Assembly: GCA_017532725.1 (NCBI GenBank)
Contig: JAFXIZ010000059.1
Coordinates: 1-59,376 of the forward strand
DNA length: 59,376 nucleotides
Direction of reading: 5' to 3'
Source: Bacteroidaceae bacterium
GTDB taxonomy: Bacteria; Bacteroidota; Bacteroidia; Bacteroidales; Barnesiellaceae_A
In this document: one piece after another, positions 8,279 to 28,973 of the stretch
How the letters are laid out: each line of letters opens with the position of its first letter
How positions within the stretch are numbered: the stretch's first letter is position 1
The notes under the pieces: model-generated
What the model was told of the DNA's origin: nothing
What the model saw: the letters and a program-made list of their open reading frames with translations, nothing else
The model's database searches: none
Program-made: the position numbers and the translations under genes

Positions 8279-8340
8279 GGTTTACGACCAAGCCACTGCA
8301 AGTAACCCCTTGATAAGAGGGAGCAACTCTTGGGCAAAAC

Positions 8341-8366
8341 AAAAGGCGAGCCAATGCTCGCCTTTT
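8341..8366. terminator. Bidirectional intrinsic terminator between convergent pepD and nuoN
   Basis: AAAAGGCGAGC-CAAT-GCTCGCCTTTT with A and T tails. Confidence 0.85.
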
Positions 8367-8386: not shown

Positions 8387-9835
8387 TCAGATACCTACTG
8401 TAAGGCTCAATCCCGACAAGTAGCCATATACGCAACTTGCGATACCGAGAATCAAGATACCTGCCACGCAGATAACAAGTCCTGTGCGACCGTAGCAACC
8501 GGTCTTAACGGTTTCGATAGGATTATCGTTGGGATTGATAAACATTGCTTTTACCACCAACAGATAGTAGAACAACGAGATAATAGTATTGAGCAATGCA
8601 ATGAGTACAAGGATATAGTATCCACTGTTTACTGCCGATGCAAAGATAAAGAATTTGCTGAAGAAGCCGGCAAAGGGAGGAATACCTGCCAACGAGAACA
8701 TAGCGAGCATCATAGCAAGGCTCAACTTGGGGTTGGTTTGGTACAATCCGTTATAGTCGTCCATATTTACCTTACCTGTCTTATTCTCAATGGTAGCAAT
8801 CACACCGAAAGCAGCCAAGTTCGAGAAGATATATACAAGGATATAGTAAACAAGGGCAGTCATACCTTGTGCGCTGTTAGCCATAACACCGAGCATAATA
8901 TATCCGGCTTGTGAGATAGATGAGAAAGCGAGGAAACGTTTCAGATCTTTCTGACGGATGGCAAACAAGTTACCCAATGTAATGGTGAGGATGATAAGCA
9001 CATAGAGTATTCCTTGCCACACCTCGGGCGAGGGGCTGAATGTCTTAAACAACACCCACAAGAAAGCAAAGGCTGCAGCACCCTTCGATATTACCGAGAG
9101 GTAGGCTGTAACGGCTGTAGGGCCTCCTTGGTACACGTCGGCAGTCCACAAGTGGAAAGGAACGAGTGACAGTTTGAAGCCGATGCCCGAAATGATGAAA
9201 GCCAAGGCAACGATAAACAATGCAGTGTTGGCTGTTGCAGCAAGGGCTATATCCTCAAAGTAGAGCGAGCCCGACATTGCATACATAAATGAAATACCCA
9301 TCAGGAATATAGCCGATGAGAATACGGCATTGAAGAGGTATTTGGCACCCGACTCATACGAGTCGCCACCTTGTTTATTGAAGGCTACCAATGCAGCAAT
9401 GGGCAATGAAGCAGTTTCGAGTCCGATGAAGAAGATGAGGAAGTGACCCGATGAAATCATCAAGTACATACCGAAGAGTGTGAAGAACATCAACTCATAG
9501 AACTCACCACGACGCACCTTGCAAGCCTCGCTGTTGACCCACGAATGGGCTTGCAACAATACAAGTATAGTACCTATATTAAGCACCATTTTCATAGCAG
9601 TTGTCATAGGGGTGTTGATAAACATACCTCCAAAGAGAGTATGTGTTTCGCTACCGGGAATGCAACTTACGGCAGTTACTGCAGCAAGCAGTACGCAGGC
9701 TATGCCCGAGAACCACTTATCGAGGAAACGGGGCGATGCAAAAAGGTCGATAAAGAAAAGGAGTACTGTGGCTACCAACAGCAGCAACTCGGATTGCATA
9801 TACTCCCATATCAATGAATATTGTGAAAAATCCAT
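8387..9835 (-). CDS. nuoN: NADH-quinone oxidoreductase subunit N
   Basis: GLETASLP, FKLSLVPFHLWTADVYQG, KRFLAFSSISQAGY and FSLAGIPPFAGFFSKF motifs. Confidence 0.96.
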   Translation of the reverse strand: MDFSQYSLIWEYMQSELLLLVATVLLFFIDLFASPRFLDKWFSGIACVLLAAVTAVSCIPGSETHTLFGGMFINTPMTTAMKMVLNIGTILVLLQAHSWVNSEACKVRRGEFYELMFFTLFGMYLMISSGHFLIFFIGLETASLPIAALVAFNKQGGDSYESGAKYLFNAVFSSAIFLMGISFMYAMSGSLYFEDIALAATANTALFIVALAFIISGIGFKLSLVPFHLWTADVYQGGPTAVTAYLSVISKGAAAFAFLWVLFKTFSPSPEVWQGILYVLIILTITLGNLFAIRQKDLKRFLAFSSISQAGYIMLGVMANSAQGMTALVYYILVYIFSNLAAFGVIATIENKTGKVNMDDYNGLYQTNPKLSLAMMLAMFSLAGIPPFAGFFSKFFIFASAVNSGYYILVLIALLNTIISLFYYLLVVKAMFINPNDNPIETVKTGCYGRTGLVICVAGILILGIASCVYGYLSGLSLTVGI

Positions 9836-9846
9836 ATCTGCGATGT

Positions 9847-11340
9847 TTATGATAGACGTTCGACAATAGCGTTAAGGCTGTTACTGATGAGGTTAGAAAT
9901 CCAACCGGGGAAGCAACCTATGGCAGCGACACAGATGATGAGTGTCACAGCCGAGAGGCGTTCCCACCAAGTGGCATCGGTGAGTTCGCGATGATGCTCG
10001 TTTTGCACGGCACCATAGAGCAACTTACCTACAACACGCAAGATGTAAACAGCCGTAATTACAATCGAGCAACAGGCTACGATAGTGAATACACGGTGGA
10101 ACATATCGGTGTGTTGGAAAGAACCTACAAAGATTGTCATCTCGGCAACGAAACCACTCAAGCCCGGCAAACCGAGTGAAGCAAGACCGGCTATTACATA
10201 GCAAACCGAGAGGAAAGGCATAATTTGCATCAAGCCACCCATTTCGCGAATGTCGCGTGTGTGGGTACGACCATATATCATACCTATCAAGGCAAAGAAC
10301 AAGGCTGTCATAAGACCGTGCGAGAGCATTTGCATTACAGCACCTGTCATTGCAGTGTTATTGAGCATAAGAATGGCAAAGAGCACAAGACCACAGTGGC
10401 TCACCGATGAGTAGGCATTGATATACTTCAAGTCGGTTTGTACACAAGCCGAGAATGCACCATATACCACACTGATACCTGTGAGGATAAGGAATATCCA
10501 CGACAACTCTTGTGCAGCGAAGGGCATAAGATAGATGGCAACACGGAAGCAACCGTAACCACCCAATTTCATCAGCACACCTGCGTGAAGCATCGAAACG
10601 GCTGTAGGTGCCGATGCGTGACCGTCGGGCGACCAAGTGTGGAAGGGGAACATAGCACCCAAGATACCAAATCCCACAAAAGTCAAGGGGAAGAGGAAGT
10701 ATTGCCAATCGTGCGGGATAGCGTTGTTTTGGGCAATCTCAAGGATGTTCATTGTGAGTTGTCCGCCTTCGGGGGCAGAGTGGTAATAGATACCGAGTAT
10801 GCCCAACATAAGCAGTGCCGAGCCACCCATCAACATCAGCGTAAGTTTCATTGCCGAATAGTTCTTCTTACCACTACCCCACACACCTATAAGCAGGTAC
10901 ATAGGAATAAGCGCAACCTCGTAGAACATAAACATTGTAAACAAGTCTATCGAGATAAAGAAGCCATACACACCTATTGAAAGGAGTGTGAGCCACAAGA
11001 AAAACTCTTTCGAGAGGGGTTCAATCTTCCACGATGCAAATACACCGGCAAAAACGATGATTGCAGTGAGCAACAACATAGTAACCGAGATACCGTCAAC
11101 ACCCACAGCATAGTGTATGTTGAGAGGCTCATACCACATTGTCGAGGCTTGGAAGAGCATATCCTGGGCATTGCCGGCAGCACGCTCGGCCAAGTATTTA
11201 AATACGGTGTAGATAGCAAGTCCCAGTTGAAGGGTAGAGAACGTGACTGCTACCGTGCGTATTTGTTTCATATCTCTTGCTATGGCAAGTCCTGCCATCA
11301 TCAAGATAGGAATAAGCACAAAAAATGATAGAAAATTCAT
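9847..11340 (-). CDS. nuoM: NADH-quinone oxidoreductase subunit M
   Basis: VGVDGIS, FYEVALIPMY, FPFHTWSPDGHASAPT, MKLGGYG, AYSSVSH and SLGLPGLSGFVAE motifs. Confidence 0.96.
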   Translation of the reverse strand: MNFLSFFVLIPILMMAGLAIARDMKQIRTVAVTFSTLQLGLAIYTVFKYLAERAAGNAQDMLFQASTMWYEPLNIHYAVGVDGISVTMLLLTAIIVFAGVFASWKIEPLSKEFFLWLTLLSIGVYGFFISIDLFTMFMFYEVALIPMYLLIGVWGSGKKNYSAMKLTLMLMGGSALLMLGILGIYYHSAPEGGQLTMNILEIAQNNAIPHDWQYFLFPLTFVGFGILGAMFPFHTWSPDGHASAPTAVSMLHAGVLMKLGGYGCFRVAIYLMPFAAQELSWIFLILTGISVVYGAFSACVQTDLKYINAYSSVSHCGLVLFAILMLNNTAMTGAVMQMLSHGLMTALFFALIGMIYGRTHTRDIREMGGLMQIMPFLSVCYVIAGLASLGLPGLSGFVAEMTIFVGSFQHTDMFHRVFTIVACCSIVITAVYILRVVGKLLYGAVQNEHHRELTDATWWERLSAVTLIICVAAIGCFPGWISNLISNSLNAIVERLS

Positions 11341-11369
11341 AGTTTCTTCGTTTTATTGGTTCTTCAACT

Positions 11370-13283
11370 TTATAAGAGACAAATTATCGTTATCGCAGCA
11401 ATGAGCAATGTGCCCATAAGCAGTATCCATACATAACTTTGTATATAACCCGATTGCAAGCCTTTGATGCGAGCCGATACCCATTGTGTTACATTGGCAA
11501 ACATATCCATTGTACCATCGATGATGTGACGGTCGAACCACGCTATGGGCGCGCAGATGCCTTTGAATATGATTTTGTGAGTTATAAACAAGTATATTTC
11601 GTCGATGTAGAAACGACGATAGGCGGCAGTGTGCAGCGTGCGAGTAGCATCGGCCATTGCGGTGGGTTTCTTGTTCTCTTTCAGATACAACCAAGCAGCC
11701 AACGAGATGGCACACACTGCTACGATAATGCTGGTGGTTGCCACACTCCAATCGAGGTGGATGTGGTAGGGCTGACCATTTACACTTACCAACTCACCGA
11801 AGGGAATAAAACCTGCCACACAAGTAACCAATGCCAAGAATATAAGTGGCAATGTCATTGTGAGGGGTGCCTCGTGAGGTGTGTGATGACTGCAATCGGT
11901 ATTCTTCCACCAGAAGATACGGAAGTAGAGACGGAACATATAGAATGCTGTCAAGCCGGCTACTACTGTCATCCATATACCCCAGAATGTGCTTTTGTTC
12001 ATTACAGCAGTGAGAATCTCATCCTTACTGAAGAATCCCGAGAAGGGAGGTATTCCGGCAATGGCCAAGCAGGCAATGAGGAATGTAATGTGGGTAATGG
12101 GCATATACTTGCGCAAACCACCCATTTCGCTCATCTCGTTTGAGTGTACAGCGTGAATGATAGCACCTGCACCCAAGAAGAGCAACGCCTTGAACATAGC
12201 GTGAGTAAACAAGTGGAACATAGAAGCCATATAACCCAAGCCTTCGTGCAGGTCGGTATCGTTGGCTACGCCCAATGCTACTATCATAAAGGCTATTTGC
12301 GATATGGTAGAGAAGGCAAGCACACGCTTAATATCGGTCTGAACACAAGCCACTATAGCAGCATACAACGCTGTAATAGCACCCACGGTAGTGATAAGTT
12401 CGAGCACCTCGGGGGTTACACAATATACAGGGAAAAGGCGTGCAACCAAATATACACCGGCTACCACCATTGTAGCAGCGTGAATAAGTGCCGATACAGG
12501 AGTAGGACCCTCCATTGCATCGGGCAACCAAATGTGCAAGGGGAACATTGCCGACTTACCTGCACCACCCATAAAAATGAGAGCCAAAGCCCAAGATGCT
12601 ACCGAGCAACCGAGGAATGTAGCGCCGGCTGTTTCGGTAATGATAGCAGTGGGAGTAGCAGTGAGGGTAGCAAAGTCGAATGTCTTTGTAAAGAACGACA
12701 AAATGAGGATACCGATAAGGAATCCGAGGTCGGCAAAACGTGTAACGATAAATGCTTTCTTCGAGGCTGCAATGGCTGCCGGCTTGGTATAATAGAAGCC
12801 AATGAGCAGATAAGAAGATACACCCACAAGTTCCCAGAAGATATACATCTGGAAGATGTTGGTGGCTACTACCAAGCCCAACATCGACATACTGAAGAGC
12901 GATAGGAAAGCATAGTAACGTTGAAAACCTTTCTCGCCGTGCATATAGCCGAGGCTATAGATATGTACCATCAACGATACGGTGGTGATAACAACGAGCA
13001 TCATTACCGAGATAGGGTCGAGATATATACCCAAGTCGATGTGCAGATTCTCGGTGAAACGCAACCACTCATAGTTGTAGGGAGTAACCGAAGGTATCAC
13101 CCCCTCGGCATTGCGAGGTTGAGTAAAGAATTGGTAGGCTGTAAAATAAGCCAACGCAGCGCACACGGTCATACCCAATGTGCCCAATATACCCGCTACA
13201 CGGGGCTTCAACTTGCTGTCGAGCAGTCCCAACAACAAGAACATAGCCAAGGGCAGTAGTAAGATGAAAACTGTATATTCCAT
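11370..13283 (-). CDS. nuoL: NADH-quinone oxidoreductase subunit L
   Basis: WELVGVSSYLLIGF, GKSAMFPLHIWLPDAMEGPTPVSALIHAATMV and HLFTHAMFKALLFL motifs. Confidence 0.97.
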   Translation of the reverse strand: MEYTVFILLLPLAMFLLLGLLDSKLKPRVAGILGTLGMTVCAALAYFTAYQFFTQPRNAEGVIPSVTPYNYEWLRFTENLHIDLGIYLDPISVMMLVVITTVSLMVHIYSLGYMHGEKGFQRYYAFLSLFSMSMLGLVVATNIFQMYIFWELVGVSSYLLIGFYYTKPAAIAASKKAFIVTRFADLGFLIGILILSFFTKTFDFATLTATPTAIITETAGATFLGCSVASWALALIFMGGAGKSAMFPLHIWLPDAMEGPTPVSALIHAATMVVAGVYLVARLFPVYCVTPEVLELITTVGAITALYAAIVACVQTDIKRVLAFSTISQIAFMIVALGVANDTDLHEGLGYMASMFHLFTHAMFKALLFLGAGAIIHAVHSNEMSEMGGLRKYMPITHITFLIACLAIAGIPPFSGFFSKDEILTAVMNKSTFWGIWMTVVAGLTAFYMFRLYFRIFWWKNTDCSHHTPHEAPLTMTLPLIFLALVTCVAGFIPFGELVSVNGQPYHIHLDWSVATTSIIVAVCAISLAAWLYLKENKKPTAMADATRTLHTAAYRRFYIDEIYLFITHKIIFKGICAPIAWFDRHIIDGTMDMFANVTQWVSARIKGLQSGYIQSYVWILLMGTLLIAAITIICLL

Positions 13284-13291
13284 AGCGGTCC

Positions 13292-13603
13292 TTAATATTT
13301 CATATCGTCGAGTTTATCCACTTCGATGTCGCGGATGTGACGGAAAATGTTAATAATAATAGCAATAGCAATCGCAGTCTCGGCAGCGGCAATGGCGATG
13401 GCAAATATTGCAAAAACCATACCCTCCATTTGTCCGGGGAACAAGAAGCGATTGAAAACGGCAAAGTTTATGTCAACAGCATTGAGCATCAACTCTAACG
13501 AGATGAGCATCATAAGCATATTCTTACGAGTGATAAAACCGTACACGCCGGCAAAGAACATCACAAGACTCAATACGATGTAATATATCATTGGTATTTC
13601 CAT
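13292..13603 (-). CDS. nuoK: NADH-quinone oxidoreductase subunit K
   Basis: LISLELMLNA and IAAAETAIAIA motifs; three TM helices. Confidence 0.95.
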   Translation of the reverse strand: MEIPMIYYIVLSLVMFFAGVYGFITRKNMLMMLISLELMLNAVDINFAVFNRFLFPGQMEGMVFAIFAIAIAAAETAIAIAIIINIFRHIRDIEVDKLDDMKY

Positions 13604-13615
13604 AATCTTCAGTTT

Positions 13616-14134
13616 TTAGCGTTTACGGGCTATCATAATGGCTCCGATGATACAGGCCAATAATAAAACACTGACTGCCTCAAATGGAAGCAGATATTGG
13701 AATTTTTCCATACCTATAAGTGCGTGACCCAAAGCCTTGATGGGATGCTCGCCGGTCTCTACGAGATTGACAGCAGGCCACGAGTAGGTAAAGAGTGCGA
13801 AGGCACATACAGCGGCTCCTGTCACTGCTGCTACGATACCCAGTATTTGCTTGGTGAGGCTTGTTTTTTCGCAACGCTCGCCGGGATGGCTTGTGAGCAA
13901 GATAGAAAAGACAAACAGAACCAATATACCACCGGCATACACAGCTATTTGCACCGAGCCAAGGAATGTATAATCGAGCATAAAGTATATACCTGCTGTC
14001 GATAAAAGCACGAATAGCAGGTATGTAGCAGCCCGAAGTATGCGACGTGTGGTGACTGCCAATATCGAGCATACCACAATAACTATCGCAAGCAAGTAGA
14101 AAATAACTTGTTGAGCTAAAGGTAAGAGTTCCAT
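13616..14134 (-). CDS. nuoJ: NADH-quinone oxidoreductase subunit J
   Basis: VQIAVYAGGILVLFVF and YLLPFEAVSVLLL motifs. Confidence 0.95.
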   Translation of the reverse strand: MELLPLAQQVIFYLLAIVIVVCSILAVTTRRILRAATYLLFVLLSTAGIYFMLDYTFLGSVQIAVYAGGILVLFVFSILLTSHPGERCEKTSLTKQILGIVAAVTGAAVCAFALFTYSWPAVNLVETGEHPIKALGHALIGMEKFQYLLPFEAVSVLLLACIIGAIMIARKR

Positions 14135-14142
14135 ATATAGTA

Positions 14143-14631
14143 TTATTCTGATTTTTCTTCTTTAGGGGTTTCACGCACCGGTTCGGGACGATTGTTGAGT
14201 TGCTTAACAAGTTTCTCGCGAGAGAAAACTGCTTGCTCAAACTCGTTTGTAAACTCAATGGCGTTGTGAGGGCAAGTGCTTACGCACAATTGGCAGAAAG
14301 TACAGCAACCGAGGTCATACATATATCGGTCGAGTACGCGCTTTGTTTTGCCATCTTCGGTCTCAATTTTTTTCGCCACGACTTCGATTGTATTGTTGGG
14401 GCAGTTGTTTTGACAAATACCACAGGCTATACATTTGTGGTTGCCTTGCTCGTCATATACAAGCGAAAGTGTAGCGCGAAAACGCTCGGGAATTTCGAGT
14501 GTTTTACGATTCTCGGGATACTGTTGGGTAATCTTACGGCTGAAAAAATATTTACCCGTAATACTCATACCGGTGAGCAAACTCCCGATGCCTTCAAATA
14601 ACGATGTGAAATAGTTCTTGTTACTTCCCAT
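14143..14631 (-). CDS. nuoI: NADH-quinone oxidoreductase subunit I (two 4Fe-4S clusters)
   Basis: TQQYPE, CIACGICQNNCP and CTFCQLCVSTCP motifs. Start moved to the ATG at 14631 (MGSNKNYF). Confidence 0.93.
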   Translation of the reverse strand: MGSNKNYFTSLFEGIGSLLTGMSITGKYFFSRKITQQYPENRKTLEIPERFRATLSLVYDEQGNHKCIACGICQNNCPNNTIEVVAKKIETEDGKTKRVLDRYMYDLGCCTFCQLCVSTCPHNAIEFTNEFEQAVFSREKLVKQLNNRPEPVRETPKEEKSE

Positions 14632-14733
14632 AGGTCTGTTTGATAGTGTGCCTATCAGTTCGTTATAGTTAATATCTCTCGGCGAGAATGCTTGGCAGTT
14701 GCCTGCCAAGTCATCTCGTCAAAAGGGGTTAGT

Positions 14734-15609
14734 TTATCCGTCAACCTTGCCGCCCAATATATCGAGCAGTTCGTTTGTGATACTTTGTTGGCGTAACTTG
14801 TTGTATTCAAGTTGCAATTCTTCACGCAATTTCTTGGCATTGTCGTTGGCCGACTGCATAGCAAGAACGCGCGCTGCTTGCTCCGAGGCACGATTTTGGC
14901 TGATGCTCTCTTGCAACGATGCCAATACCGACAGTGGTAACACTGTGTCGAAGATTGTCGATACATCGGGCTCGAAAAGGTAGGGCTTGCACTCGGCTTG
15001 CTTGTCGGATGCTTCGGCTACGACCGGCAGCATAATACGATTGGCAAGTCGCTGACGTCCCATACTCAAGAATTCCATAAACACAATCTCTATGTGGTCC
15101 AATTCTTCGCTTAGGAACGCTTGCGAGAGTTCGTCGCACATTTGTTTTATCTTTTCGTCACTGCTCTTGGCTGTCATATAGGGCAACACCGATACTCGCA
15201 CATTGGGGAGTGCAAGTTTCTTGGATGCGGCAACAACCTTCTTACCAATGGGATAGATAACAAACGATACCTCCTCGTTCGATTCTTCTTTTACCCGACT
15301 TATCGTTTCGAGCATACGTTTGAATAGCATCATATTGAAAGCACCGCACAACCCTTCGTCGCTACCCAACAGCACAATACCCATTTGTTTTACAGGGCGT
15401 ACTTGGGTCAGAGGCGAGGTGTATTCGCTATCGGCAGCCAAGAGGTTGTCGATAGTAGATTGTATCTGTTGACGGAACGGCTCAACACGTTGCAATGCTT
15501 GCATTGCCTTGTGCATCTTGGCCGACGAAATCATTTTCATCGCGCCGGTAATCTTCTCGGATGTCGATACCGAGCCTATTCTGCCTTTCAGTTCGCGGAT
15601 GGATGCCAT
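14734..15609 (-). CDS. atpG: F1 ATP synthase gamma subunit
   Basis: RI.SV....KITGAMKMISSAK, SDEGLCGAFN, SEQAARVLAMQSANDNA and YNKLRQQSITNEL motifs. Confidence 0.96.
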   Translation of the reverse strand: MASIRELKGRIGSVSTSEKITGAMKMISSAKMHKAMQALQRVEPFRQQIQSTIDNLLAADSEYTSPLTQVRPVKQMGIVLLGSDEGLCGAFNMMLFKRMLETISRVKEESNEEVSFVIYPIGKKVVAASKKLALPNVRVSVLPYMTAKSSDEKIKQMCDELSQAFLSEELDHIEIVFMEFLSMGRQRLANRIMLPVVAEASDKQAECKPYLFEPDVSTIFDTVLPLSVLASLQESISQNRASEQAARVLAMQSANDNAKKLREELQLEYNKLRQQSITNELLDILGGKVDG

Positions 15610-15616
15610 ATCTTAA

Positions 15617-17194
15617 TTATGCCTTAAAGCGGTTAGCAACTTCTTTAGCCACCTCGGTGAGTTTGGCAGCAATCTCATCATTGAGAATACCTTTCTTCAA
15701 CTCATCGAGAACATCGGTTTGATGTTTAGCGTGGAGTATTTGCAGGAACAGTTTCTCAAACTCGGCCACTTTGTCGGTGGGAACGGGTGCGAGCAAGCCT
15801 TGTGTACCACAATAGATTATAGCAATCTCTTCCTCAACGGGAACAGGGCTGTATTGTGGTTGAATAAGTACACGCTCGTTCTTGCGACCTTTGTCAATAA
15901 CCATTGCAGTTACGGGGTCGATGTCGCCACCGAATTGTGTAAACGACTCAAGTTCACGGAATTGTGCTTGATCGATTTTGAGTGTACCGGCAATCTTCTT
16001 CATAGCCTTGAGTTGTGCGCTACCACCCACACGCGATACCGAGATACCTACGTTGATGGCAGGGCGTACACCTTGGTTGAAGAGTTTGGTTTCGAGGAAT
16101 ATCTGACCGTCGGTAATAGAGATTACGTTGGTGGGGATATAGGCCGAAACGTCGCCTGCTTGAGTTTCGATGATGGGGAGTGCTGTGAGCGAGCCTCCAC
16201 CTTTTACCATAGGTTTCAACACTTCGGGCAGGTCGTTCATCGAAGCAGCCACCTTATCGTTGTCGATAATCTTGGCCGAACGTTCCAACAAGCGCGAGTG
16301 GAGGTAGAAGATATCACCGGGATATGCTTCACGACCCGAAGGACGGCGCAAGATAAGTGAAATCTCGCGATAAGAAACGGCTTGTTTCGACAAGTCGTCG
16401 TATATCACAAGAGCGTGACGACCTGAATCGCGGAAGTACTCACCAATGGCAGCACCGGCCATAGGTGCATAGTAACGCATAGCAGCCGAGTCGGATGCAT
16501 TGGCAGCCAATACGATGGTATAGTCCATTGCGCCGTGTTCGCGCAGTGTGTTTACCAATGCTGCTACCGATGAAGCCTTTTGACCTATCGCAACGTAGAT
16601 ACAATAGAGGGGGTTACCGTTCTTAAAGTTCTCACGTTGATTGATAATAGTATCTATGGCAATTGTTGTTTTTCCTACTTGTCGGTCACCGATGATAAGT
16701 TCGCGTTGTCCACGACCGATGGGTACCATAGCATCGATAGCCTTGATACCGGTCTGTAGAGGTTCTTTTACAGGTTGACGGAAGATAACACCGGGAGCCT
16801 TACGGTCGAGGGGCATCAACACAGTATTGCCTGCAATGGGGCCTGCACCGTCGATGGGGTCGCCCAACGTATTGATAACACGACCCAACAAACCTTCGCC
16901 AACGGGAATTGAAGCGATGTCGCCGGTGCGACGTACAGTCATATTCTCGGTAACCTTTTCGATATCGTTTAGAAGGATTACACCCACATTACTCTCTTCG
17001 AGGTTCATAGCCACACCACGCACGCCGTTTTCAAACTCTACGAGTTCGCTCGACTTAACATTGTCAAGGCCATAGACGTGGGCAACACCGTCACCTACTT
17101 CGAGTACGGTACCTATCTCTTCAAAGTTGGCTTGTTTGTCAACCTCTTCGAGTTTGCTTTTGAGTATATCCGATATCTCGTTTGGTTTTATCAT
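15617..17194 (-). CDS. atpA: F1 ATP synthase alpha subunit
   Basis: GDRQVGKT Walker [28 protein letters not shown] and [14 protein letters not shown]; Bacteroidetes-type insertion MNDLPE.LK..VKGGGS. Confidence 0.98.
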
Positions 17195-17198
17195 AAGA

Positions 17199-17738
17199 TT
17201 ATTTGTTTAGTAATTTTACGCGCAATTTTTTAAGCTCGTTTTGAATCGAAGCATCGAGTTGCATCGACTCAACGCGCAGTATAAAACCACCGATGAGCGA
17301 GGGGTCTATTTCATAGACAAACTCCAGCTCTTTATCGAGTTTCGATTTCAACAGGCTCTTGATGCGTGCCACAATTTCGTCGCTTACAGCCGATGCTGTA
17401 ATGATAGTGACACGAGCAATGTTGTTCTCTTTACGATACACATCCTGATAGTCGAGCATAGCGGCTCGGAAGAATGTTTCACGGTGATTGAGAATTACCA
17501 AGTTGATGAATCGAAGGATAGCCTTACCGGCATCAGGGCCGGCAGCAGCAATAAGTAACTGCTCTTTTTCGGTAGCACTCAAGGCAGGATTACCCAACGC
17601 TTTGGTCAGTGCCGGGTGTGTAGCAAATGCTTCCTCAAGTCGTTGCGTATCGGCATAGACTTGTTGGGTACATTGCTGCTCTTGTGCATATTTGTACAAG
17701 GCTTTAGCGTATCTGCGAGGAATTAATCCTTCGTTCAT
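17199..17738 (-). CDS. atpH: F1 ATP synthase delta subunit
   Basis: RRYAKAL and [11 protein letters not shown]...QLDAS motifs. Confidence 0.94.
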
Positions 17739-17743
17739 AATTC

Positions 17744-18241
17744 TTAGTTTTTATGTTCAAGTTCGTTCAATAATTGCTCTACCATTTCCGCCTGAGCTTT
17801 ATCGCCCGCGAGTTCTTTGCGAATAATATTTTCGGCTATTGTGAGGGCGAATTGGCTCACTTCTTGACGGAACTGTAGTTCTGCTTCTTTGCGCGATTGC
17901 TCGATACTGATGGTGGCAGCATCAACAAGTTTCTTGGCTTCGGCGGCAGCGGCTTTCTTGGCCTCTTCGATGATTTGAGCCTTCATCTGTGCTGCTTCTT
18001 GAAGGATTTCCATTTGTTGACGTCCTGCTTCAGCGAGAATGGCGCGGGCTTGGCTCTCAGAGTCTTCGAGGCTTGCTTTGGCTGCTTCGGCATACTCTAC
18101 ACCGTTGTCGATGAGGGTAGCACGCTCGTCAACCATCTTGGTGATGACGGGCCACGCAAACTTGGCAAGTATGGCAAATAATACCACAAATACCACAAAC
18201 ATCCAAAAGACGAGCCCTGCTTCGGGCATAAACAGTTCCAT
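17744..18241 (-). CDS. atpF: Fo ATP synthase subunit b
   Basis: P..GLVFWM..F...LAKFAWP TM helix followed by an Ala/Glu-rich coiled coil. Confidence 0.93.
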   Translation of the reverse strand: MELFMPEAGLVFWMFVVFVVLFAILAKFAWPVITKMVDERATLIDNGVEYAEAAKASLEDSESQARAILAEAGRQQMEILQEAAQMKAQIIEEAKKAAAAEAKKLVDAATISIEQSRKEAELQFRQEVSQFALTIAENIIRKELAGDKAQAEMVEQLLNELEHKN

Positions 18242-18260
18242 ACGGGACTTTTAGGCGAGA

Positions 18261-18506
18261 TTAGAGGAACAATGCGAGAATACAAACGATAACGGCGAAA
18301 AGGGCAACACCCTCGATAAGAGCCGCGATAACGATCATACTACCACGAACGTCGCCTGCTGCTTCGGGTTGACGTGCGATGGCTTCCATAGCCGAACTAC
18401 CGATGCGACCGATACCCAAACCTGCAGCGATTGCTGCGATACCTGCTCCTACGCACGCACCGATTACTGTAAGAGGTGCGAGTGCTGTTAAAATCATTGC
18501 TAACAT
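18261..18506 (-). CDS. atpE: Fo ATP synthase subunit c (H+-type signature)
   Basis: GLGIG glycine zipper, ARQPE loop, ALIEGVALF with the essential Glu. Confidence 0.96.
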   Translation of the reverse strand: MLAMILTALAPLTVIGACVGAGIAAIAAGLGIGRIGSSAMEAIARQPEAAGDVRGSMIVIAALIEGVALFAVIVCILALFL

Positions 18507-18552
18507 AATGTTTTCTTTTTTATAAGGTTAATAATTTATTTGTTTTTCTTTT

Positions 18553-19626
18553 CTATTCGTGATGATGTTCTTCAACTTGTGCCAACGATATAAATATGGT
18601 TGACAACATTGTAAATACATAGGCTTGGATGTAACTTACCAACGTATCTATGATGTACATAAAGAGTGAGAATCCTACCGATAGTACGGTAGTGGCACTA
18701 CCTACGGCTATACCTCCCATCTCCTTGAAGATGAAGATAAGCGAGAGTAATACCAACACTATCATATGGCCACCCATCATATTGGCAAACAGACGCACCA
18801 TAAGCGCAATGGGCTTGGTGAATACGCCGAATATCTCAATAAAGGGCATAATGGGTAGCGGACACTTTAAGGCAATGGGTACATCGGGCCAGAATATCTC
18901 TTTCCAATACTCCTTGGTACCAAAGATGTTTACTGCCAAGAATGTGCAGATAGCGAGTACAAGTGTAATTGCCAAGTTACCGGTAAGGTTGGCTCCTGCC
19001 GGGAAGATGACCATCAAACCCATCAAGTTCGATACAAAGATAAAGTAGAATGCTGTGAGCAGATAAGGAGCAAAACGACGACCCTTCTCGGGACCGAGAA
19101 TCGACTTAATCACATCATCGTATATCATACAGGTGAGCATTTCTATTGCTCCTACAAAACCTCTCGGGGCTTTCTTACCATTATTCTTGTACCAACGAAC
19201 AAGAGGGAAGATACATAGGCACACAACGATTACGGTGATAAACAACGCAGCGACATTCTTGGTAATAGAGATGTCAAGGGGTCGATATACTTCACCTTTA
19301 TCGTTTACACCCACCACCTTGCCGTGATGTGCTTCGCTTGAATCAATATAGAATCCGTCGTATGTTTCGCCGTGTTCTACCTTGTTTGACATAAAACAGT
19401 GCCAACCACCCTTATAGTCTTGTACTATAATGGGCAGGGGTATTTTATGGCTGTGCGAAAAAGGCACTTCCCAGCTGTAGTGGTCCACCAAGTGCTCAAA
19501 GATTGTCTCTTTGGCATCGTACTTGGCATTCTCATCGTGATGCGAATGATCGAACAAGGCTATGCTTGCCGCAGCCGCTATTACAATAAGTGTAATGCTT
19601 ATGATAAGTATCGAGTGCTTTTTCAT
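18553..19626 (-). CDS. atpB: Fo ATP synthase subunit a
   Basis: LDISITKNV, NLMGL, KPIALMVRLFANMMGGH (essential Arg) and IQAYVFTMLS motifs; Bacteroidetes-type N-terminal extension. Confidence 0.95.
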   Translation of the reverse strand: MKKHSILIISITLIVIAAAASIALFDHSHHDENAKYDAKETIFEHLVDHYSWEVPFSHSHKIPLPIIVQDYKGGWHCFMSNKVEHGETYDGFYIDSSEAHHGKVVGVNDKGEVYRPLDISITKNVAALFITVIVVCLCIFPLVRWYKNNGKKAPRGFVGAIEMLTCMIYDDVIKSILGPEKGRRFAPYLLTAFYFIFVSNLMGLMVIFPAGANLTGNLAITLVLAICTFLAVNIFGTKEYWKEIFWPDVPIALKCPLPIMPFIEIFGVFTKPIALMVRLFANMMGGHMIVLVLLSLIFIFKEMGGIAVGSATTVLSVGFSLFMYIIDTLVSYIQAYVFTMLSTIFISLAQVEEHHHE

Positions 19627-19654
19627 TGATTTTTATTTCTTTATTCGGGACTTA

Positions 19655-19888
19655 TTAATAGATACATACCGCAATACGATTGTTGTCTATGTCAACAAAT
19701 CCACCACTCGTTTCTACGGAATGACGTTCATTGCCAATAACATACTCTATCGAGCCTTTTTCGAGGGTCGATACCAACGATGCGTGGTTGTGCAATACAG
19801 TGAACGAGCCTTTTGTGCCGGGTAGCGTTACCGATGTTACCTCGCCGCTGAAGAGTGTTGTTTCCGAAGATATTATTTCGAGTTTCAT
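19655..19888 (-). CDS. atpC: F1 ATP synthase epsilon subunit (N-terminal domain only, 77 aa)
   Basis: LEIIS, VTLPGTKGSFTVLHNHA and GGFV motifs; no C-terminal helices. Confidence 0.92.
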   Translation of the reverse strand: MKLEIISSETTLFSGEVTSVTLPGTKGSFTVLHNHASLVSTLEKGSIEYVIGNERHSVETSGGFVDIDNNRIAVCIY

Positions 19889-19896
19889 AACAATTA

Positions 19897-21423
<1,527 letters not shown>

Positions 21424-21456
21424 TTATAAGGTTATCTATTTTATTTATTTACAATA

Positions 21457-22533
21457 TTAAAAGTGCCAACCCATAGCCACTACAACGCTCATAATGGCGA
21501 GGTTAACAAGGCTTATGGGGAGGAGATATTTCCACTCGAGATTAAGCAGTTGGTCGATGCGCAGACGGGGGAATGTCCAACGGAACCACATACTTATCCA
21601 CACTACTACGATACTCTTACCGAGGAACCACACAATCGACGGGATGTAGTCCATAATTGCGTTGAAACTATCCCAGCCGGGTATGTGCAAAGGCATCCAA
21701 CCTCCCAAGAACAATGTTGTGGCAATACCACCCATAATGAAGAGGTTAAGATACTCTGCCAAGTAGTAGAATCCGAAGTGGATACCCGAATACTCAGTGT
21801 GATAACCGGCAGTAAGTTCACTCTCGGCCTCGGCCATATCGAAGGGGCCACGGTTGATTTCGGCTGAGCCGGCTACCAAGTAGATGATGAATGCAATAAG
21901 TGCAGGGATGTGACCCTTGAAGAGGAACCAAGCATCGTGCTGTGCCTCGACAATACCTGTTACCGACATACTGCCCGATATGGCTACGATGGTGAGTATA
22001 GACAAGCCTATAGACAACTCGTAACTAATCATTTGCGCACCGGCACGCATTGCACCGATTACGGTATATTTGCTGTTCGACGACCATCCGGCAAGGAGTA
22101 CACCCAAGATACCCAATCCCGATACGGCAAGCATAAAGAATACACCAATGTTATAGTCGATAACTTGCAATCCATTACCCCAAGGCAGACAAGCAAATGT
22201 AAGCATCGATGCCACCAATACGAAGAATGGAGCGAGGTTGAACAAGAAGTGGTCGATATTTTTCAAGTAGATAAGTTCTTTGATAAGAATCTTGAGCATA
22301 TCGGCAATACTTTGAAATACACCGAAAGGTCCTACACGATTGGGGCCAAGGCGACACTGAAACGCACCGGCTACCCTACGTTCGAAGTAGATAAGGAAGA
22401 GTGCGAGGATGCAATATAGCGCCAAGATGGCTACACCTATAAGCACAAACTCTATGAGCAACGTAGCCCATTCGGGCAAGAAACTCATTAAGAGGTTATG
22501 TATCCACATTGTAATATTCGAAAAGTCGTACAT
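21457..22533 (-). CDS. nuoH: NADH-quinone oxidoreductase subunit H
   Basis: ERR....[39 protein letters not shown] and [12 protein letters not shown] motifs. Confidence 0.97.
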
Positions 22534-22565
22534 TTTGTTTTCGTTTATTTAGGATTTACATATTT

Positions 22566-24194
22566 TTATCGGTCAATATCGGGTATCACATAGTCGAGCG
22601 AGCCACCACCGGCTATAAGGTCGGCGATTTTTCCACCACGACACACCTCATCAAGCGATGCCACAAGCATCATACCCGGTGAGTTGAATTTCAAGCGATA
22701 GGGATACTTGTCGCCACGGCTCTCGATGAATACACCGAATGCACCACGGCTGGCCTCTACCTGACGGAACCATTGTCCCTCGGGCAACTTGATGATAGGT
22801 TTCATCTTCTCCGATACGGGGCCTTCGGGGATATTATCCACCAACTGCTCAATGATGCGAATCGATTGCAATATCTCATCCATACGCACCATATAACGGG
22901 CATATATATCGCCTTCGGTACGCAACACTTCATCAAACTCTACCTTGTCGTAGAGTGCATAGGGTATGCGTTTACGCACGTCGCAAGCCCAACCCGAAGC
23001 ACGTCCCGAAGGGCCTGTCATTGAGTGTGCTATACAACGATCTTTCGAGATAACGCTGATGCCGTGCATACGGCCTTTGGCAATAACGTTACCGGTAAAG
23101 AATCGGTGATATTCTTTGAGGCGTTCGGGCATTATCTTGCAGAACTCCTTGATTTTGCGTTGATAATCGGGATGAATATCCTTCATTACACCACCTATCT
23201 TGTTGTAGTGGAACGACATACGGGCACCGGTAGTCTCTTCGAGAATATCAAGTACCATTTCACGCTCACGGAAGCCGTAGATAAGCGCAGTAGTACTGCC
23301 CAAGTCGTTGCAGAATGTACCCCAGAAGAGCAAGTGCGATGATATACGCATCAACTCATCGTTGATAGTACGAATATATTGTGCGCGCTCGGGTATCTCC
23401 ACTTGCAGGGCATCCTCGATACACATACACAAGGCGTGGCGATTTTGCATAGCCGACAGATAGTCAAGACGGTCGGTAAAGTGGAGTGTTTGGGGATATG
23501 TGAGCGACTCGCTCATCTTCTCGATACCACGGTGAATGTATCCACAATAGGGGTCAACCTTCTTGATAAACTCGCCATCGAGCGAGCAACGAAGGCGCAA
23601 CACACCGTGAGTTGAGGGGTGTTGAGGGCCTATGTTTACCACATAATCATCGGGGGCAAATATTACAGGCTCGGTCTTTTTGATAGAGCCATCGGCTTGT
23701 TCGACATACGATACAGTAGTGTCGTAAGCCTCCTCGTGATGCAAGCGAACGGGGTTGATTTCGGGGCTTGCATCGTAATCTTTACGAAGGGGATGTCCCA
23801 CCCAATCGCGACGCAAGAAGAGGCGACGCATATCGGGGTGATTGATAAAGATAATACCAAAGAAGTCGTAAACCTCTCTCTCGTAGAAGTTTGCCGAGTC
23901 CCACAGGTCGCTTACCGAGTGCAACTTGGGATTTTCGCGATCGGCTGTTTCCACTCTTACGCACAAGCGGTCGCCGGTTTTGGTCGATTCGAGGTAATAT
24001 AAACAGCCAAGTGTTTCGCCCCAATCCATACCAACGATGGTTGTAAGGTAATCAAATGGCGTATTTACATCTTCATATAGGGCTTTTGCAAGCGTGTGCC
24101 ATTGAGCATCGGGCACCGATATCTGTAGCACTTGAGCCTCAGTAAAAGTGGCTTCAGGTATCAACTTGCTTATTTTTTCTTGAATGGTTGCCAT
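22566..24194 (-). CDS. nuoCD: NADH-quinone oxidoreductase fused subunit C/D
   Basis: EREVYDFFGI and GHPLRKD (NuoC part); NIGPQHPSTHGVLR, GYIHRGIEK, DRLDY and C-terminal DIDR (NuoD part). No NiFe CxxC motifs. Confidence 0.96.
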   Translation of the reverse strand: MATIQEKISKLIPEATFTEAQVLQISVPDAQWHTLAKALYEDVNTPFDYLTTIVGMDWGETLGCLYYLESTKTGDRLCVRVETADRENPKLHSVSDLWDSANFYEREVYDFFGIIFINHPDMRRLFLRRDWVGHPLRKDYDASPEINPVRLHHEEAYDTTVSYVEQADGSIKKTEPVIFAPDDYVVNIGPQHPSTHGVLRLRCSLDGEFIKKVDPYCGYIHRGIEKMSESLTYPQTLHFTDRLDYLSAMQNRHALCMCIEDALQVEIPERAQYIRTINDELMRISSHLLFWGTFCNDLGSTTALIYGFREREMVLDILEETTGARMSFHYNKIGGVMKDIHPDYQRKIKEFCKIMPERLKEYHRFFTGNVIAKGRMHGISVISKDRCIAHSMTGPSGRASGWACDVRKRIPYALYDKVEFDEVLRTEGDIYARYMVRMDEILQSIRIIEQLVDNIPEGPVSEKMKPIIKLPEGQWFRQVEASRGAFGVFIESRGDKYPYRLKFNSPGMMLVASLDEVCRGGKIADLIAGGGSLDYVIPDIDR

Positions 24195-24244
24195 ATATTT
24201 ATATATAAGGTGTATGTTTTCTTATTGCTATTAAGAGAGTATTT

Positions 24245-24844
24245 TTATTCTTTGTCTTTGAAGAATTCTTCTCTTTTCTGTTTGCGATTAACTCCACCGA
24301 AGAAGTTCTCAACTTTTATTTTACGTTGCAATTGCATCATACCATAGAGCATTGCTTCGGGGCGTGGAGGACAACCGGGAACATATACATCGACCGGCAG
24401 GATTTGGTCGATACCCGGCACTGTATGATAAGAATTACGGAACGGACCACCCGACACTGCACAAGCACCGGTAGCAATTACATATTTAGGCTCGGCAAGT
24501 TGGTCATATACACGCTTGAGGATGGGAGCCATACGGTGTACTATTGTACCGGCCACCATCAAGAAGTCGGCTTGACGGGGTGAATTACGAGTAACCTCAA
24601 AACCGAAACGTGCCATATCGTGACGTGCAGCGGCTACCGACATAAACTCAATACCACAGCAACTTGTAGCAAAAGCCAAGGGCCACACCGAGTTGGAGCG
24701 TCCCCAGTTGATTATATCATCAAAAACGCCAACAACCACATTTGTGCCGGCAGCGTTAAGTTCTTCAACCAATTGCTCGAGTGACTCATTATCCTTGAAG
24801 TCCTCGTATGGCATAGCCTTTATTTTCGATTTTTTTACTTCCAT
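24245..24844 (-). CDS. nuoB: NADH-quinone oxidoreductase subunit B
   Basis: TSCCGIE, SPRQAD, GACA..GG and VYVPGCPPRPE motifs; ATG at 24844 overlaps the end of nuoA. Confidence 0.96.
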   Translation of the reverse strand: MEVKKSKIKAMPYEDFKDNESLEQLVEELNAAGTNVVVGVFDDIINWGRSNSVWPLAFATSCCGIEFMSVAAARHDMARFGFEVTRNSPRQADFLMVAGTIVHRMAPILKRVYDQLAEPKYVIATGACAVSGGPFRNSYHTVPGIDQILPVDVYVPGCPPRPEAMLYGMMQLQRKIKVENFFGGVNRKQKREEFFKDKE

Positions 24845-25185
24845 TCCAATGCTCCTTTCTTCCACGCGTACACAAGACCCAATACAAGAATTACCATAAA
24901 TACGGCGATGCTGATAAGACCTGCAGCACCTACATCACGCAGTATGACAGCCCAAGGAAACAGGAATACTGTTTCGACATCGAACATCAAATAGAGAATG
25001 GCAAAAAGGTAGTAACCTGCCTTGAATTGCATCCACGAAGTACCACGCGTAGGAATACCGCACTCGTAGGCCTCGCCTTTTTGGGGATTGAATGAGCGAG
25101 GTGCAAGCAACCAAGCGATAAGCAAGGCCGCTCCTACCATTACAATCGCTGTGACCAGAATCGTCACAAAAAGTGCTGAATTCAT
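24835..25185 (-). CDS. nuoA: NADH-quinone oxidoreductase subunit A
   Basis: YECG, FDVETVFLFPWA and WKKGALEW motifs. Confidence 0.96.
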   Translation of the reverse strand: MNSALFVTILVTAIVMVGAALLIAWLLAPRSFNPQKGEAYECGIPTRGTSWMQFKAGYYLFAILYLMFDVETVFLFPWAVILRDVGAAGLISIAVFMVILVLGLVYAWKKGALEWK

Positions 25186-25264: not shown

Positions 25265-25294
25265 CAAAGTTACAAAAAAGTTTTTCTCAACAAA
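25265..25294 (-). promoter_or_regulatory. Putative promoter of the nuo-atp operon (-33 TTTG at 25291-25294, -7 TAACTTTG at 25265-25272)
   Basis: Both Bacteroidetes sigma-A elements on the minus strand, ~80 bp upstream of nuoA. Confidence 0.65.
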
Positions 25295-26876: not shown

Positions 26877-28751
26877 TTATCGTATAGCCACTTTGGTTGA
26901 TTGACCGTTAACGGTTACGATATAGATACCGGCATTAAGACCACTGTTGATGTTGGTCTTCAAGTTGTTTGCACGCTCGGTAAGTACAACACGACCGGCA
27001 ATGTCGGCAACTACGATTTCGCTACCTTGAGGAGCATTCACTACTGTGATTTCGCTACCGTTGGCATACACTGTGCAGTCGTTTACCTTGGGGGCAACCA
27101 CGGCTGCATTGTCATTGAATGTAACCAAGGGGAATATGGCAGTAGATACACCACCGGCCTTATAATATTGGATAGCATCCATCCATCCCGAAGGCATATC
27201 GGCAGTACCTACGGCATTGTAATAGAAGGCAGTATTACCCTCAGGGAAGGCACGCACATTGCTGGTTGCGAAGAAAAGGTGGTTATTTGAGCCTATCTTA
27301 ATGCCTTCGGGGAACTCAAATTCGAGGAAGAATGTACCCTTCACATCGACAGTTTCACTAAACGCCAAGCCCACCAACACTGCCGATTGGAAACTTGCTG
27401 TTCCAAAGACATCACCAATTTTGAATTTTTCGCTATAGACTTCTTCGCCGGGCATATTATTCTCGTCGGCAAGAAGAACTTTTACAGCAAACTCTTTATT
27501 CTTATTGACAATAGAAATTGTATAACGCAAAGGTATCATATATGCTCCCGATACCGAAGCAGTTACATTCTCGGGGAGTGAATAACGTTCGGCAAAACGA
27601 TAGTAGTTAGAGTTCAAACCACTCAAAGCATCATAACTACCACCTCCCGAGAATAGATAAAAGCCATCTTCGGGGCAGAAGTTACCTACAAAATCGGTAT
27701 GAGCAGTTTCATTATTCAAGCGATTTATAAAGAATTCACGAATGGCGTATGCCTCACCATCTTGGTTTTTCATAGTGAGATAAACGTCATTATACACCTC
27801 ATCGCTTTTAGCCTTTGCAAAGTCAAATGTTACAACAGGTTGCGCAGCATCATTGTTGGGGGTTGTAGCATATTTACCAAAATCCCAAGACACGCTTTCG
27901 CAATTGCTTGCATAGCAACCATACTTGATAGAGTCACCATTTTGAATATAAAGGCGATATACATCTATATTACCCTCTTCGTCTTGTGTGTGACCATCCA
28001 TCGACCACAATCCACCAATTGAGAACATAGAACCTTGAGGCAAAATCTTAACGTGGTCGCTATCGATTTGCATATAATCCCACAAGCAGAGGTTACCACC
28101 CATGGCTGTTGTACAGTGATGTATGGCAGGGTAATATGTACCACTTACAGTAGGAGTAAATGTGCCTGTATAGAGTGTCCATTTATTATCGGTCTTGGCA
28201 TTAACACCTGTACAATCGATAACAATATTGGTTTGTGCCTCAACAGTTTGCGCATTACCTATAGTCACTTGCCATTCATCTACAACACTATTATATCCTT
28301 GGCAGAATGCATATATACCAAAGTGATAAGTATGATTGGCCTCAAGTTGAACACCGGTTGCAATAGCCCAACCATCACGATGGCTTTCGTCGCTAAACAT
28401 CGAAGCCAAACCGTAATCGCCCGAGAAAGCAGTAATATAACCACTCGACGACTCAAGAATATTGGCACAGAAAACACCTCCATCAACAGTATTATCGACT
28501 ACGACCCAACCGTGAGGTACCATAGTTTCACTATTGAATGTTTCAAAGTCTTCAAAGAAAATTTCAGTATCTTCAGCAGCAGGGGCTTTGACAGTCGCTT
28601 GGCGACCAAGTTTGATACCTTGTGATTGTAATTGAGAAAGATCTTTTCTCACCAATCCATTATTTGTCAAATGAATGGGTCGCATTTCAGCCATAGCCAC
28701 ACTGCTCGACAGGGCTACAGCAACAATGCCAAGTAGTAATTTTTTAATCAT
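26877..28751 (-). CDS. T9SS type A sorting domain-containing secreted protein (cleaved-adhesin-like N-terminal domain)
   Basis: Signal peptide MIKKLLLGIVAVALSSSVAMA; FFEDFE...P.GW...D domain start; C-terminal V.DIAGRVV...GIYIVTVNGQSTKVAIR sorting domain. Confidence 0.8.
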   Translation of the reverse strand: MIKKLLLGIVAVALSSSVAMAEMRPIHLTNNGLVRKDLSQLQSQGIKLGRQATVKAPAAEDTEIFFEDFETFNSETMVPHGWVVVDNTVDGGVFCANILESSSGYITAFSGDYGLASMFSDESHRDGWAIATGVQLEANHTYHFGIYAFCQGYNSVVDEWQVTIGNAQTVEAQTNIVIDCTGVNAKTDNKWTLYTGTFTPTVSGTYYPAIHHCTTAMGGNLCLWDYMQIDSDHVKILPQGSMFSIGGLWSMDGHTQDEEGNIDVYRLYIQNGDSIKYGCYASNCESVSWDFGKYATTPNNDAAQPVVTFDFAKAKSDEVYNDVYLTMKNQDGEAYAIREFFINRLNNETAHTDFVGNFCPEDGFYLFSGGGSYDALSGLNSNYYRFAERYSLPENVTASVSGAYMIPLRYTISIVNKNKEFAVKVLLADENNMPGEEVYSEKFKIGDVFGTASFQSAVLVGLAFSETVDVKGTFFLEFEFPEGIKIGSNNHLFFATSNVRAFPEGNTAFYYNAVGTADMPSGWMDAIQYYKAGGVSTAIFPLVTFNDNAAVVAPKVNDCTVYANGSEITVVNAPQGSEIVVADIAGRVVLTERANNLKTNINSGLNAGIYIVTVNGQSTKVAIR

Positions 28752-28973
28752 AATATTATTGTTTAGGTTAATAGTTTTCTTGTGCATAAACATCGTTTGC
28801 AAATGTAGGCTAATTTTTTGTCACTGCGAAATGATTGGGCTAAAAAAAGTATTTTTCACCCAATAAACCACTCAAAAAGCATTAAGTCGTTGCTATTCAA
28901 TCATTACCCCCACAACATCACTTCCAATTGTTTATTGAAATATCGGATGCTACATTTTTGTGGATAATAAAAT

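Follow-up and report, generated by a model that had tools for sequence, protein, structure and literature searches.

The window, meaning the whole stretch of 59,376 nucleotides that was analyzed, is one entire contig (JAFXIZ010000059.1) of a metagenome-assembled genome (MAG) of a Bacteroidaceae bacterium that is 92.65% complete. It carries on its minus strand, between 8387 and 25185, an operon for the complex I-like enzyme NUO that is divided between nuoH and nuoI by a complete F1Fo ATP synthase (atp) cluster. Eighteen open reading frames (ORFs) are tiled in the order nuoA-B-CD-H, atpD-C-B-E-F-H-A-G, nuoI-J-K-L-M-N, each of them at the position given by an earlier note that had read this nesting from the sequence alone, and there is no mobile gene or additional ORF among them, in agreement with that note's statement that no transposase is present. 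The locus has the gene-level marks of a single operon: one strand, small gaps of which the largest is 102 nt, and no foreign genes between. The genome contains one nuoH and one atpD. The genes and signals are as follows, in the direction of transcription.

25265-25294, minus strand: candidate Bacteroidetes-type promoter (a motif match only), TTTG (-33), 18 nt, then TAACTTTG (-7, 25265-25272)
24835-25185, minus strand: nuoA (PF00507, 125.8 bits)
24245-24865, minus strand: nuoB (PF01058; NF011391, 373 bits versus a cut-off of 283), the longest ORF overlapping nuoA by 31 nt
22566-24194, minus strand: nuoCD fusion (PF00329 and PF00346; NF004739, 423.5 bits versus a cut-off of 360)
21457-22533, minus strand: nuoH (PF00146, 384 bits; NF004741 over cut-off)
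21406-21456, minus strand: nuoH-atpD spacer, A/T-rich, with the motif TAACCTTATAA and without a hairpin or TAnnTTTG box
19897-21405, minus strand: atpD, F1 beta (PF00006, PF02874, PF22919), the longest ORF beginning at 21423
19655-19888, minus strand: atpC, epsilon (PF02823), 77 aa, N-terminal domain only
18553-19626, minus strand: atpB, Fo a (PF00119)
18261-18506, minus strand: atpE, Fo c (PF00137), the ion-binding Glu lying within IEGVALF
17744-18241, minus strand: atpF, Fo b (PF00430)
17199-17738, minus strand: atpH, delta/OSCP (PF00213)
15617-17194, minus strand: atpA, F1 alpha (PF00006, PF00306, PF02874)
14734-15609, minus strand: atpG, gamma (PF00231)
14676-14725, minus strand: long RNA hairpin of about 21 pairs immediately behind atpG, with no U-tract after it
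14641-14657, minus strand: GATAGG-N-ACTATC, a small palindrome or hairpin roughly 10 nt upstream of the nuoI ATG
14143-14631, minus strand: nuoI (Fer4 families; TIGR01971 just below cut-off; assigned by position and orthology)
13616-14134, minus strand: nuoJ (PF00499)
13292-13603, minus strand: nuoK (PF00420; NF004320 over cut-off)
11370-13283, minus strand: nuoL (PF00361, PF00662; NF005141 over cut-off)
9847-11340, minus strand: nuoM (PF00361; TIGR01972 over cut-off)
8387-9835, minus strand: nuoN (PF00361; TIGR01770 over cut-off)
About 8335-8366, minus strand: intrinsic terminator after nuoN, with an A-tract, a GC stem of 7-11 bp, the loop ATTG and a T-tract

The curated Pfam cut-off was exceeded by every subunit except NuoI, of which the only Pfam matches are Fer4 families and which scored 109.4 bits with NCBIfam TIGR01971, 3.6 bits below the cut-off of 113.05, the next matches being several NuoI equivalog models. 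NCBIfam models that name the individual subunit were over their cut-offs for NuoB, D, H, K, L, M and N. A fusion protein of 542 aa combines NuoC with NuoD.

A chimeric contig in which atp and nuo fragments were fused by the assembler is conceivable for a MAG of 85 contigs, of which the window is one, but both junctions are bridged by contigs from two other public runs that diverge from the window by about 1-2% (X1 record 4, 12841-16652; X1 record 7, 18877-23496; X16 records 12 and 14), and the matching order was found in dozens of independent genomes, some of them on contigs of 0.3-1.3 Mb. An assembly artefact, the first ground on which the earlier note would have given up its claim, is thereby refuted for practical purposes.

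Among genomes of the same genus, nuoH and atpD are adjacent in all 12 that have both genes; a thirteenth, 77% complete, has neither. Among 27 other families represented by one genome each, nuoH was found in 16 genomes and was adjacent to atpD in two of these. A wider survey, limited to the order Bacteroidales, took an even sample of 201 genomes from about 148 coded families, 79 of which contain nuoH (E <= 1e-100). The best 30 of these 79 nuoH loci by tblastn divide into 11 with the nested nuoH-atpD junction, belonging to seven families (f1, f21, f28, f63, f80, f105 and f135), and 19 with the canonical nuoH-nuoI junction. In the other 49 genomes with nuoH, atpD is on another contig or distant in 42, was not among the matches listed for five, and was missing at the threshold used in two. 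Another 10 genomes of the seven families were confirmed to have the complete nuoCD-to-nuoN order, as were named MAG records of ruminant-gut and human-gut origin. Within the large gut family f21, nuoH was found in 31 of 31 sampled genomes and was nested in all 30 loci returned, which represent 29 genera; this family is part of the clade that the arrangement marks. The earlier note had given, as a further ground of refutation, that the arrangement be both widespread and documented. Widespread it is, in at least seven families of the order; a published description was not found, as set out below.

The named records with the nested order are labelled Bacteroidaceae, Barnesiella, Porphyromonadaceae or Muribaculaceae, two being obviously mislabelled, and, going by the labels, the clade may comprise Muribaculaceae and Barnesiella-like bacteria. 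Two MAG bins (L013 and L014), entered under Agathobacter rectalis and Bacteroides fragilis, contain a Bacteroidales nested cluster that groups with the Muribaculaceae-labelled records, and their organism labels look wrong. Two actinomycete MAGs (L020 and L021) have a complete nuo cluster followed on the same strand by a second nuoA-B-CD-H set, an arrangement that resembles two complex I operons in tandem.

A NuoH tree with 36 rows includes 16 that are nested; 15 of these make up one clade (support 97/96), and the sixteenth (G117) lies beside it at an unresolved fork; an approximately unbiased (AU) test of all 16 as one clade did not reject that topology (p = 0.464). AtpD proteins are 82-94% identical to that of the window within the nested clade and at most 74% identical outside it, with the exception of G143. 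The nesting is genuine, ancient and inherited in stable form, and is most simply read as one relocation within the genome of a common ancestor.

The exception, G143 of family f131, has an AtpD that is 81% identical to that of the window, within the nested-clade range, together with a stand-alone atp cluster (L052), a canonical nuo operon (L053) and a NuoH whose branch is distant from the nested clade; G143 may be a sister lineage, or may reflect a reversal or a transfer of atp genes. The genes that flank its stand-alone atp cluster were also examined as a guide to the site from which the atp genes came. Their best matches in the window genome are on other contigs (C79 and C42) or nonexistent, and no empty donor site could be defined from this near-outgroup. 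A separate feature of the window sub-lineage is the long branch (0.34) of its NuoH: between the window and the same-genus genome G011, NuoH is 73% identical, compared to 93-94% for AtpD, 92% for NuoM and 87% for NuoL, which points to faster evolution of this quinone-site subunit in the window sub-lineage.

All eight F1Fo subunits (alpha, beta, gamma, delta, epsilon, a, b and c) exceeded the Pfam cut-off. The order beta-epsilon-a-c-b-delta-alpha-gamma is the one reported for Bacteroides and Prevotella in PMC5709465, and a short epsilon together with an insertion in alpha is attributed to Bacteroidetes and Chlorobi in PMC4154653; the window's epsilon, 77 aa with PF02823 only, is without the C-terminal half. 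The cluster is of the Bacteroidetes type, as the earlier note had proposed. N-type ATPase clusters also begin with beta and epsilon; they are described, in 10.64898/2026.10.01.756066, as having no delta and two extra small membrane protein genes. That identity was ruled out because a delta/OSCP gene (PF00213) is present and additional small ORFs are missing.

In the c subunit the ion-binding Glu is followed by Gly-Val, at the place where Ser/Thr would be expected of a Na+ enzyme, by a residue criterion that is taken here from the Na+ site of Ilyobacter tartaricus; by this criterion the ATP synthase looks H+-coupled. The earlier note had asked whether the genome also has a V/A-type ATPase. V-ATPase subunit I was not found in the genome, and the Bacteroides thetaiotaomicron control was matched, so that the nested cluster is the only rotary ATPase found. 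NQR, Rnf, pyruvate:ferredoxin oxidoreductase (PFOR) and the fumarate reductase flavoprotein are present, and cytochrome bd was not found in this 92.65%-complete genome. From these gene sets the organism would be a fumarate-respiring anaerobe with its sole rotary ATPase cluster inside a presumptive proton-pump operon. The PFOR gene (nifJ-type) is split over the ends of two contigs of the MAG (C35:2-2887 and C31:4653-5360).

NUO is of the 11-subunit Bacteroidales type, with NuoA, B, C, D, H, I, J, K, L, M and N all present. NuoF was not found over cut-off (TIGR01959) in the 92.65%-complete genome, the only match being a weak one of 43 bits inside RnfC; NuoE and NuoG were not separately searched, and the cluster has no extra ORFs. 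The NUO of B. fragilis, which also lacks NuoEFG, is reported in PMC7002350 to make zero contribution to NADH oxidation or to NADH:quinone activity, its electron donor being unknown. By analogy, and because NuoEFG are lacking, the NUO of the window is probably not an NADH dehydrogenase.

The two junctions differ in size and content. The atpG-nuoI gap is 102 nt (14632-14733), exactly as first described, and the nuoI ATG at 14631 is kept in nine of nine close relatives. The nuoH-atpD gap had been put at 33 nt, a figure that holds for the longest atpD ORF, starting with the ATG at 21423, but not for the conserved start. The ATG at 21423 is unconserved, with TTG, ACG or CTG in its place in relatives, and the conserved start is ATGAGTGAA at 21405, 18 nt downstream; because the smaller figure relies on the unconserved ATG, the true gap is about 51 nt, within the 40-65 nt found in the nine relatives measured (L019 lies outside this count).

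The motif TAACCTTATAA occurs at 21426-21436 and 18526-18536 of the minus strand. There are three copies in the 2.1-Mb genome, each just before an ORF start, and two of the three precede atpD and atpE, which encode the multi-copy beta and c subunits. The idea that it is a genome-wide translation signal was dropped, three genomic copies being too rare to test. In two f21 loci (L060 and L061), the nuoH-atpD spacer is about 95-103 nt long and GC-rich, with a GCAGC...GCTGC inverted repeat, in contrast to the A/T-rich spacer of the window genus.

Promoters of Bacteroidetes have the consensus TTTG ... TAnnTTTG. One recognizable example precedes nuoA, where the -7 box TAACTTTG lies 87 nt before the ATG and is the sole intergenic consensus match on the operon strand; a TAnnTTTG box is found at -85 to -89 from nuoA in all nine genus loci. 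The box is missing from both junction spacers and, in the nine genus loci, from the 900 nt upstream of nuoI; upstream of atpD in these loci, matches are sporadic and have no consistent position. At the other end, the terminator after nuoN reads AAAAGGCGAGC-ATTG-GCTCGCCTTTT followed by GTTTTG and faces a convergent M20 peptidase gene. The earlier note's single consensus promoter before nuoA and clear terminator after nuoN are thus both recovered, the former as a Bacteroidetes-type motif. A sigma-70 scan did not report any site on the minus strand between nuoA and its upstream neighbor, but the scan as a whole returned 27 promoter-like sites versus 33.8 expected and 19 terminator-like sites versus 18.1 expected, and it was set aside as of no informative value in a Bacteroidota genome. 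In four of 10 loci of other families the 3' end of nuoH has TAnnTTTG boxes, at about -90 to -112 from atpD; an internal promoter there was rejected and the matches treated as coincidental, the box in L054 and L055 overlapping the conserved coding sequence TAC CTT TG.

The atpG-nuoI spacer contains the feature that was absent from the earlier account, the long RNA hairpin directly after atpG. The spacer of the window folds at -35.2 kcal/mol (z = -8.2), and none of 200 shuffles was as stable. In the window and eight close relatives the spacer consists of two hairpins each, with energies from -28.9 to -39.0 kcal/mol and z from -6.4 to -8.7, unmatched by any of 200 shuffles in all nine cases. The apical sequence of the long stem is wholly different among species and the pairing is retained: RNAalifold on a MAFFT alignment, in which one row is poorly aligned, predicted 17 pairs, of which 12 show double compensatory changes. 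In none of the nine is there a U-tract behind the long stem. The small palindrome has a sequence that is kept in nine of nine close genus loci and can be recognized in f63 loci and G011; it may bind a protein or, as a hairpin, control translation. No Rfam family matched either spacer, the only hit being an enterobacterial small RNA at E 0.15, far below the cut-off.

In other lineages the junction has other states. In L013-15, L018 and L055-58 the spacer is 94-157 nt long and has a hairpin with a T-rich tail, which is terminator-like; G011, a divergent member of the genus, has a weak hairpin only; and in f28 the atpG-nuoI gap is about 18-29 nt and has no structure, the nuoH-atpD gap of this family being likewise only about 18-29 nt without a hairpin. 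Because its state differs between lineages, the junction is still evolving. The hairpin of the window genus may be a former atp terminator that lost its U-tract and was kept for RNA processing, stability or partial termination. Stem-loops between cistrons set differential mRNA levels inside polycistronic transcripts of the Rhodobacter puf operon and, as REP elements, in Escherichia coli.

The explanation that on balance is judged probable combines a single relocation and vertical inheritance with one long transcript, a hairpin control point and joint expression. The data show that an ancestral rearrangement, most simply a single one, put a whole Bacteroidales-type F1Fo cluster into the short nuoH-nuoI spacer of an 11-subunit nuo operon without NuoEFG, and that the layout has since been inherited vertically. 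Because in the window genus no promoter is recognizable other than that before nuoA, and no canonical terminator other than that behind nuoN, the 18 genes are predicted to start as one long transcript from the nuoA promoter. The hairpin after atpG, as a disarmed former atp terminator, would be retained as a control point within the operon, acting as a partial stop, a barrier to RNase or a stabilizer of mRNA that sets the ratio of atp to nuoI-N message. A proton-pumping menaquinone reductase, for which the electron donor would probably be ferredoxin or flavodoxin reduced by PFOR, would be expressed jointly with the cell's only rotary ATPase, seemingly H+-coupled, and a separate Na+ circuit would be left to NQR and Rnf. 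Once nuoI-N had come to depend on transcription through atp, the layout could be reversed only by precise excision, so that its long persistence would need no special coupling. As to the parts of this explanation, co-regulation from the nuoA promoter has about even chances in the window genus and is nearly forced in f28, because the junction gaps of that family leave no room for separate signals. The earlier proposal of an 18-gene transcription unit is to be modified in this sense: the single strand, the small gaps, the nuoA promoter and the nuoN terminator agree with it, but one plain transcript is uncertain because of the strong conserved hairpin after atpG.

Several points weigh against this explanation. 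The hairpin is very stable and could terminate or process most transcripts, and in sister families, where the spacer is longer and the hairpin has a T-rich tail, the junction resembles a functional terminator that leaves room for a nuoI promoter; if the hairpin stops transcription, nuoI-N need a promoter that is invisible to a strict TAnnTTTG scan. In three of nine genus loci a TAnnTTTG box inside nuoH, at about -780 from atpD, could be an internal promoter, and the promoter prediction is itself weak in that it depends on one consensus motif. The RNA data are assembled contigs, in which depth per bin gives no ranking of genes; metatranscriptomes X17 and X18 provided contigs of 270-625 nt within nuo and atp genes, and among the 32 matches listed (there are 648 further) no RNA contig crosses 14632-14733 or 21406-21456. 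The H+ reading of the c subunit depends on the Ilyobacter residue criterion, and with a genome 92.65% complete, not found is not equal to absent. Finally, gene order alone cannot tell adaptive co-regulation from a frozen accident.

A frozen accident would mean that nuoA-H, atpD-G and nuoI-N are largely independent units, that the atp genes brought their own promoter and terminator with them, and that the nesting has no regulatory meaning and was kept since its break-up is rarely harmless. For the locus as a whole this is a serious possibility that is nonetheless held to be unlikely. [quoted passage not shown] It is opposed by the nine genus loci, which lack a TAnnTTTG box in the spacers, lack one at any conserved position ahead of atpD and nuoI, and in all of which the hairpin has lost its U-tract, by the gaps of f28, both below 30 nt, and by the nuoH-atpD gap of about 51 nt, which is too small for a complete promoter and leader. 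Three units are likely in those families that keep the terminator-like element.

Co-location and its conservation across seven families, in two machines that both appear to be proton-coupled (complex I from general knowledge), are all that speaks for a physical or mechanistic coupling, by which NUO and F1Fo would be co-translated into a supercomplex, or a reverse-running ATPase would drive reverse electron flow. Both ideas were raised in the earlier note, and neither found supporting evidence: the cluster is free of additional genes, linkers and fusion proteins, the subunits have ordinary lengths and domains, canonical relatives have both enzymes at separate sites, and gene co-location is weak evidence for binding, which is not claimed here. 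Coupling of this kind is highly improbable. The related suggestion of a dedicated H+ circuit agrees with the c subunit, by the criterion given above, and with the failure to find a V-type ATPase. It is quite doubtful, lastly, that the nesting is an adaptation fixed in a major gut clade in the sense that one promoter serves both halves of a proton circuit, the ferredoxin- or flavodoxin-driven pump and the H+-ATP synthase, apart from the Na+ circuit of NQR and Rnf, with an RNA rheostat after atpG. If this were true, the rheostat would exist as a terminator in some families, as a U-less hairpin in the window genus and in deleted form in f28, and would tune the ratio of ATP synthase to NUO lineage by lineage.

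The significance of the locus is in its architecture. Both enzymes are textbook and ordinary, and there is so far no evidence of biochemical novelty; the operon architecture is the new part, apparently unreported and clade-defining. Full-text literature searches turned up no account of a nuo operon with atp genes within it, which supplementary operon maps might show, and passages from surveys of ATP synthase operons and of 11-subunit complex I, from a preprint on the evolution of rotary ATPases and from the paper on B. fragilis respiration likewise contain none; the earlier note, too, knew of none. The layout is a stable gene-order marker of single origin for a clade of at least seven GTDB families of Bacteroidales, and works as a synapomorphy by virtue of that single, stable origin. 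It poses a puzzle of dosage, in that nuoI-N must be kept in step with nuoA-H despite eight highly expressed genes between them, and its three junction states (terminator-like hairpin, U-less hairpin and no spacer) are a natural experiment. The nested layout offers a handle on the function of the NuoEFG-less NUO of gut Bacteroidales: the presumed tying of NUO expression to the cell's only ATP synthase argues that NUO is not a dispensable relic in the nested clade. The regulatory consequences are testable in abundant gut bacteria.

Outside the operon, the window has DJ-1/PfpI and trmD genes upstream, divergently transcribed, and the convergent M20 peptidase gene downstream. A 641-aa protein encoded at 26877-28802 of the minus strand has weak matches to CBM_4_9, DUF6383 and Por_Secre_tail and is probably cargo of the type IX secretion system, and there is a tRNA gene at 33129-33211.

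Compared to known systems, the atp cluster is identical in order and content to the F1Fo cluster of Bacteroides and Prevotella, with the same short epsilon and insertions in alpha and beta. Stand-alone atp clusters elsewhere have their own upstream intergenic region (860 nt in G143), whereas that of the window follows nuoH after about 51 nt and is followed by nuoI after 102 nt. The NUO operon has the same 11 subunits, flank order, NuoC-D fusion and lack of NuoF as the nuoABCDHIJKLMN operon of B. fragilis and Prevotella, but is split at nuoH/nuoI by 6.8 kb of atp genes, where canonical relatives (19 of the 30 loci, and L053) have a gap of only tens of nt. The hairpin after atpG resembles the intercistronic stem-loops of puf and the REP elements in being stable, conserved, placed between cistrons and without a U-tract; no sequence or Rfam relationship was found. 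The closest case in print is that of the Bacillus cereus group, in which, according to PMC3144371, an 11-subunit nuo operon adjoins the atp cluster: there the two stand side by side in an unrelated lineage and neither is interrupted, whereas in the window one is nested within the other.

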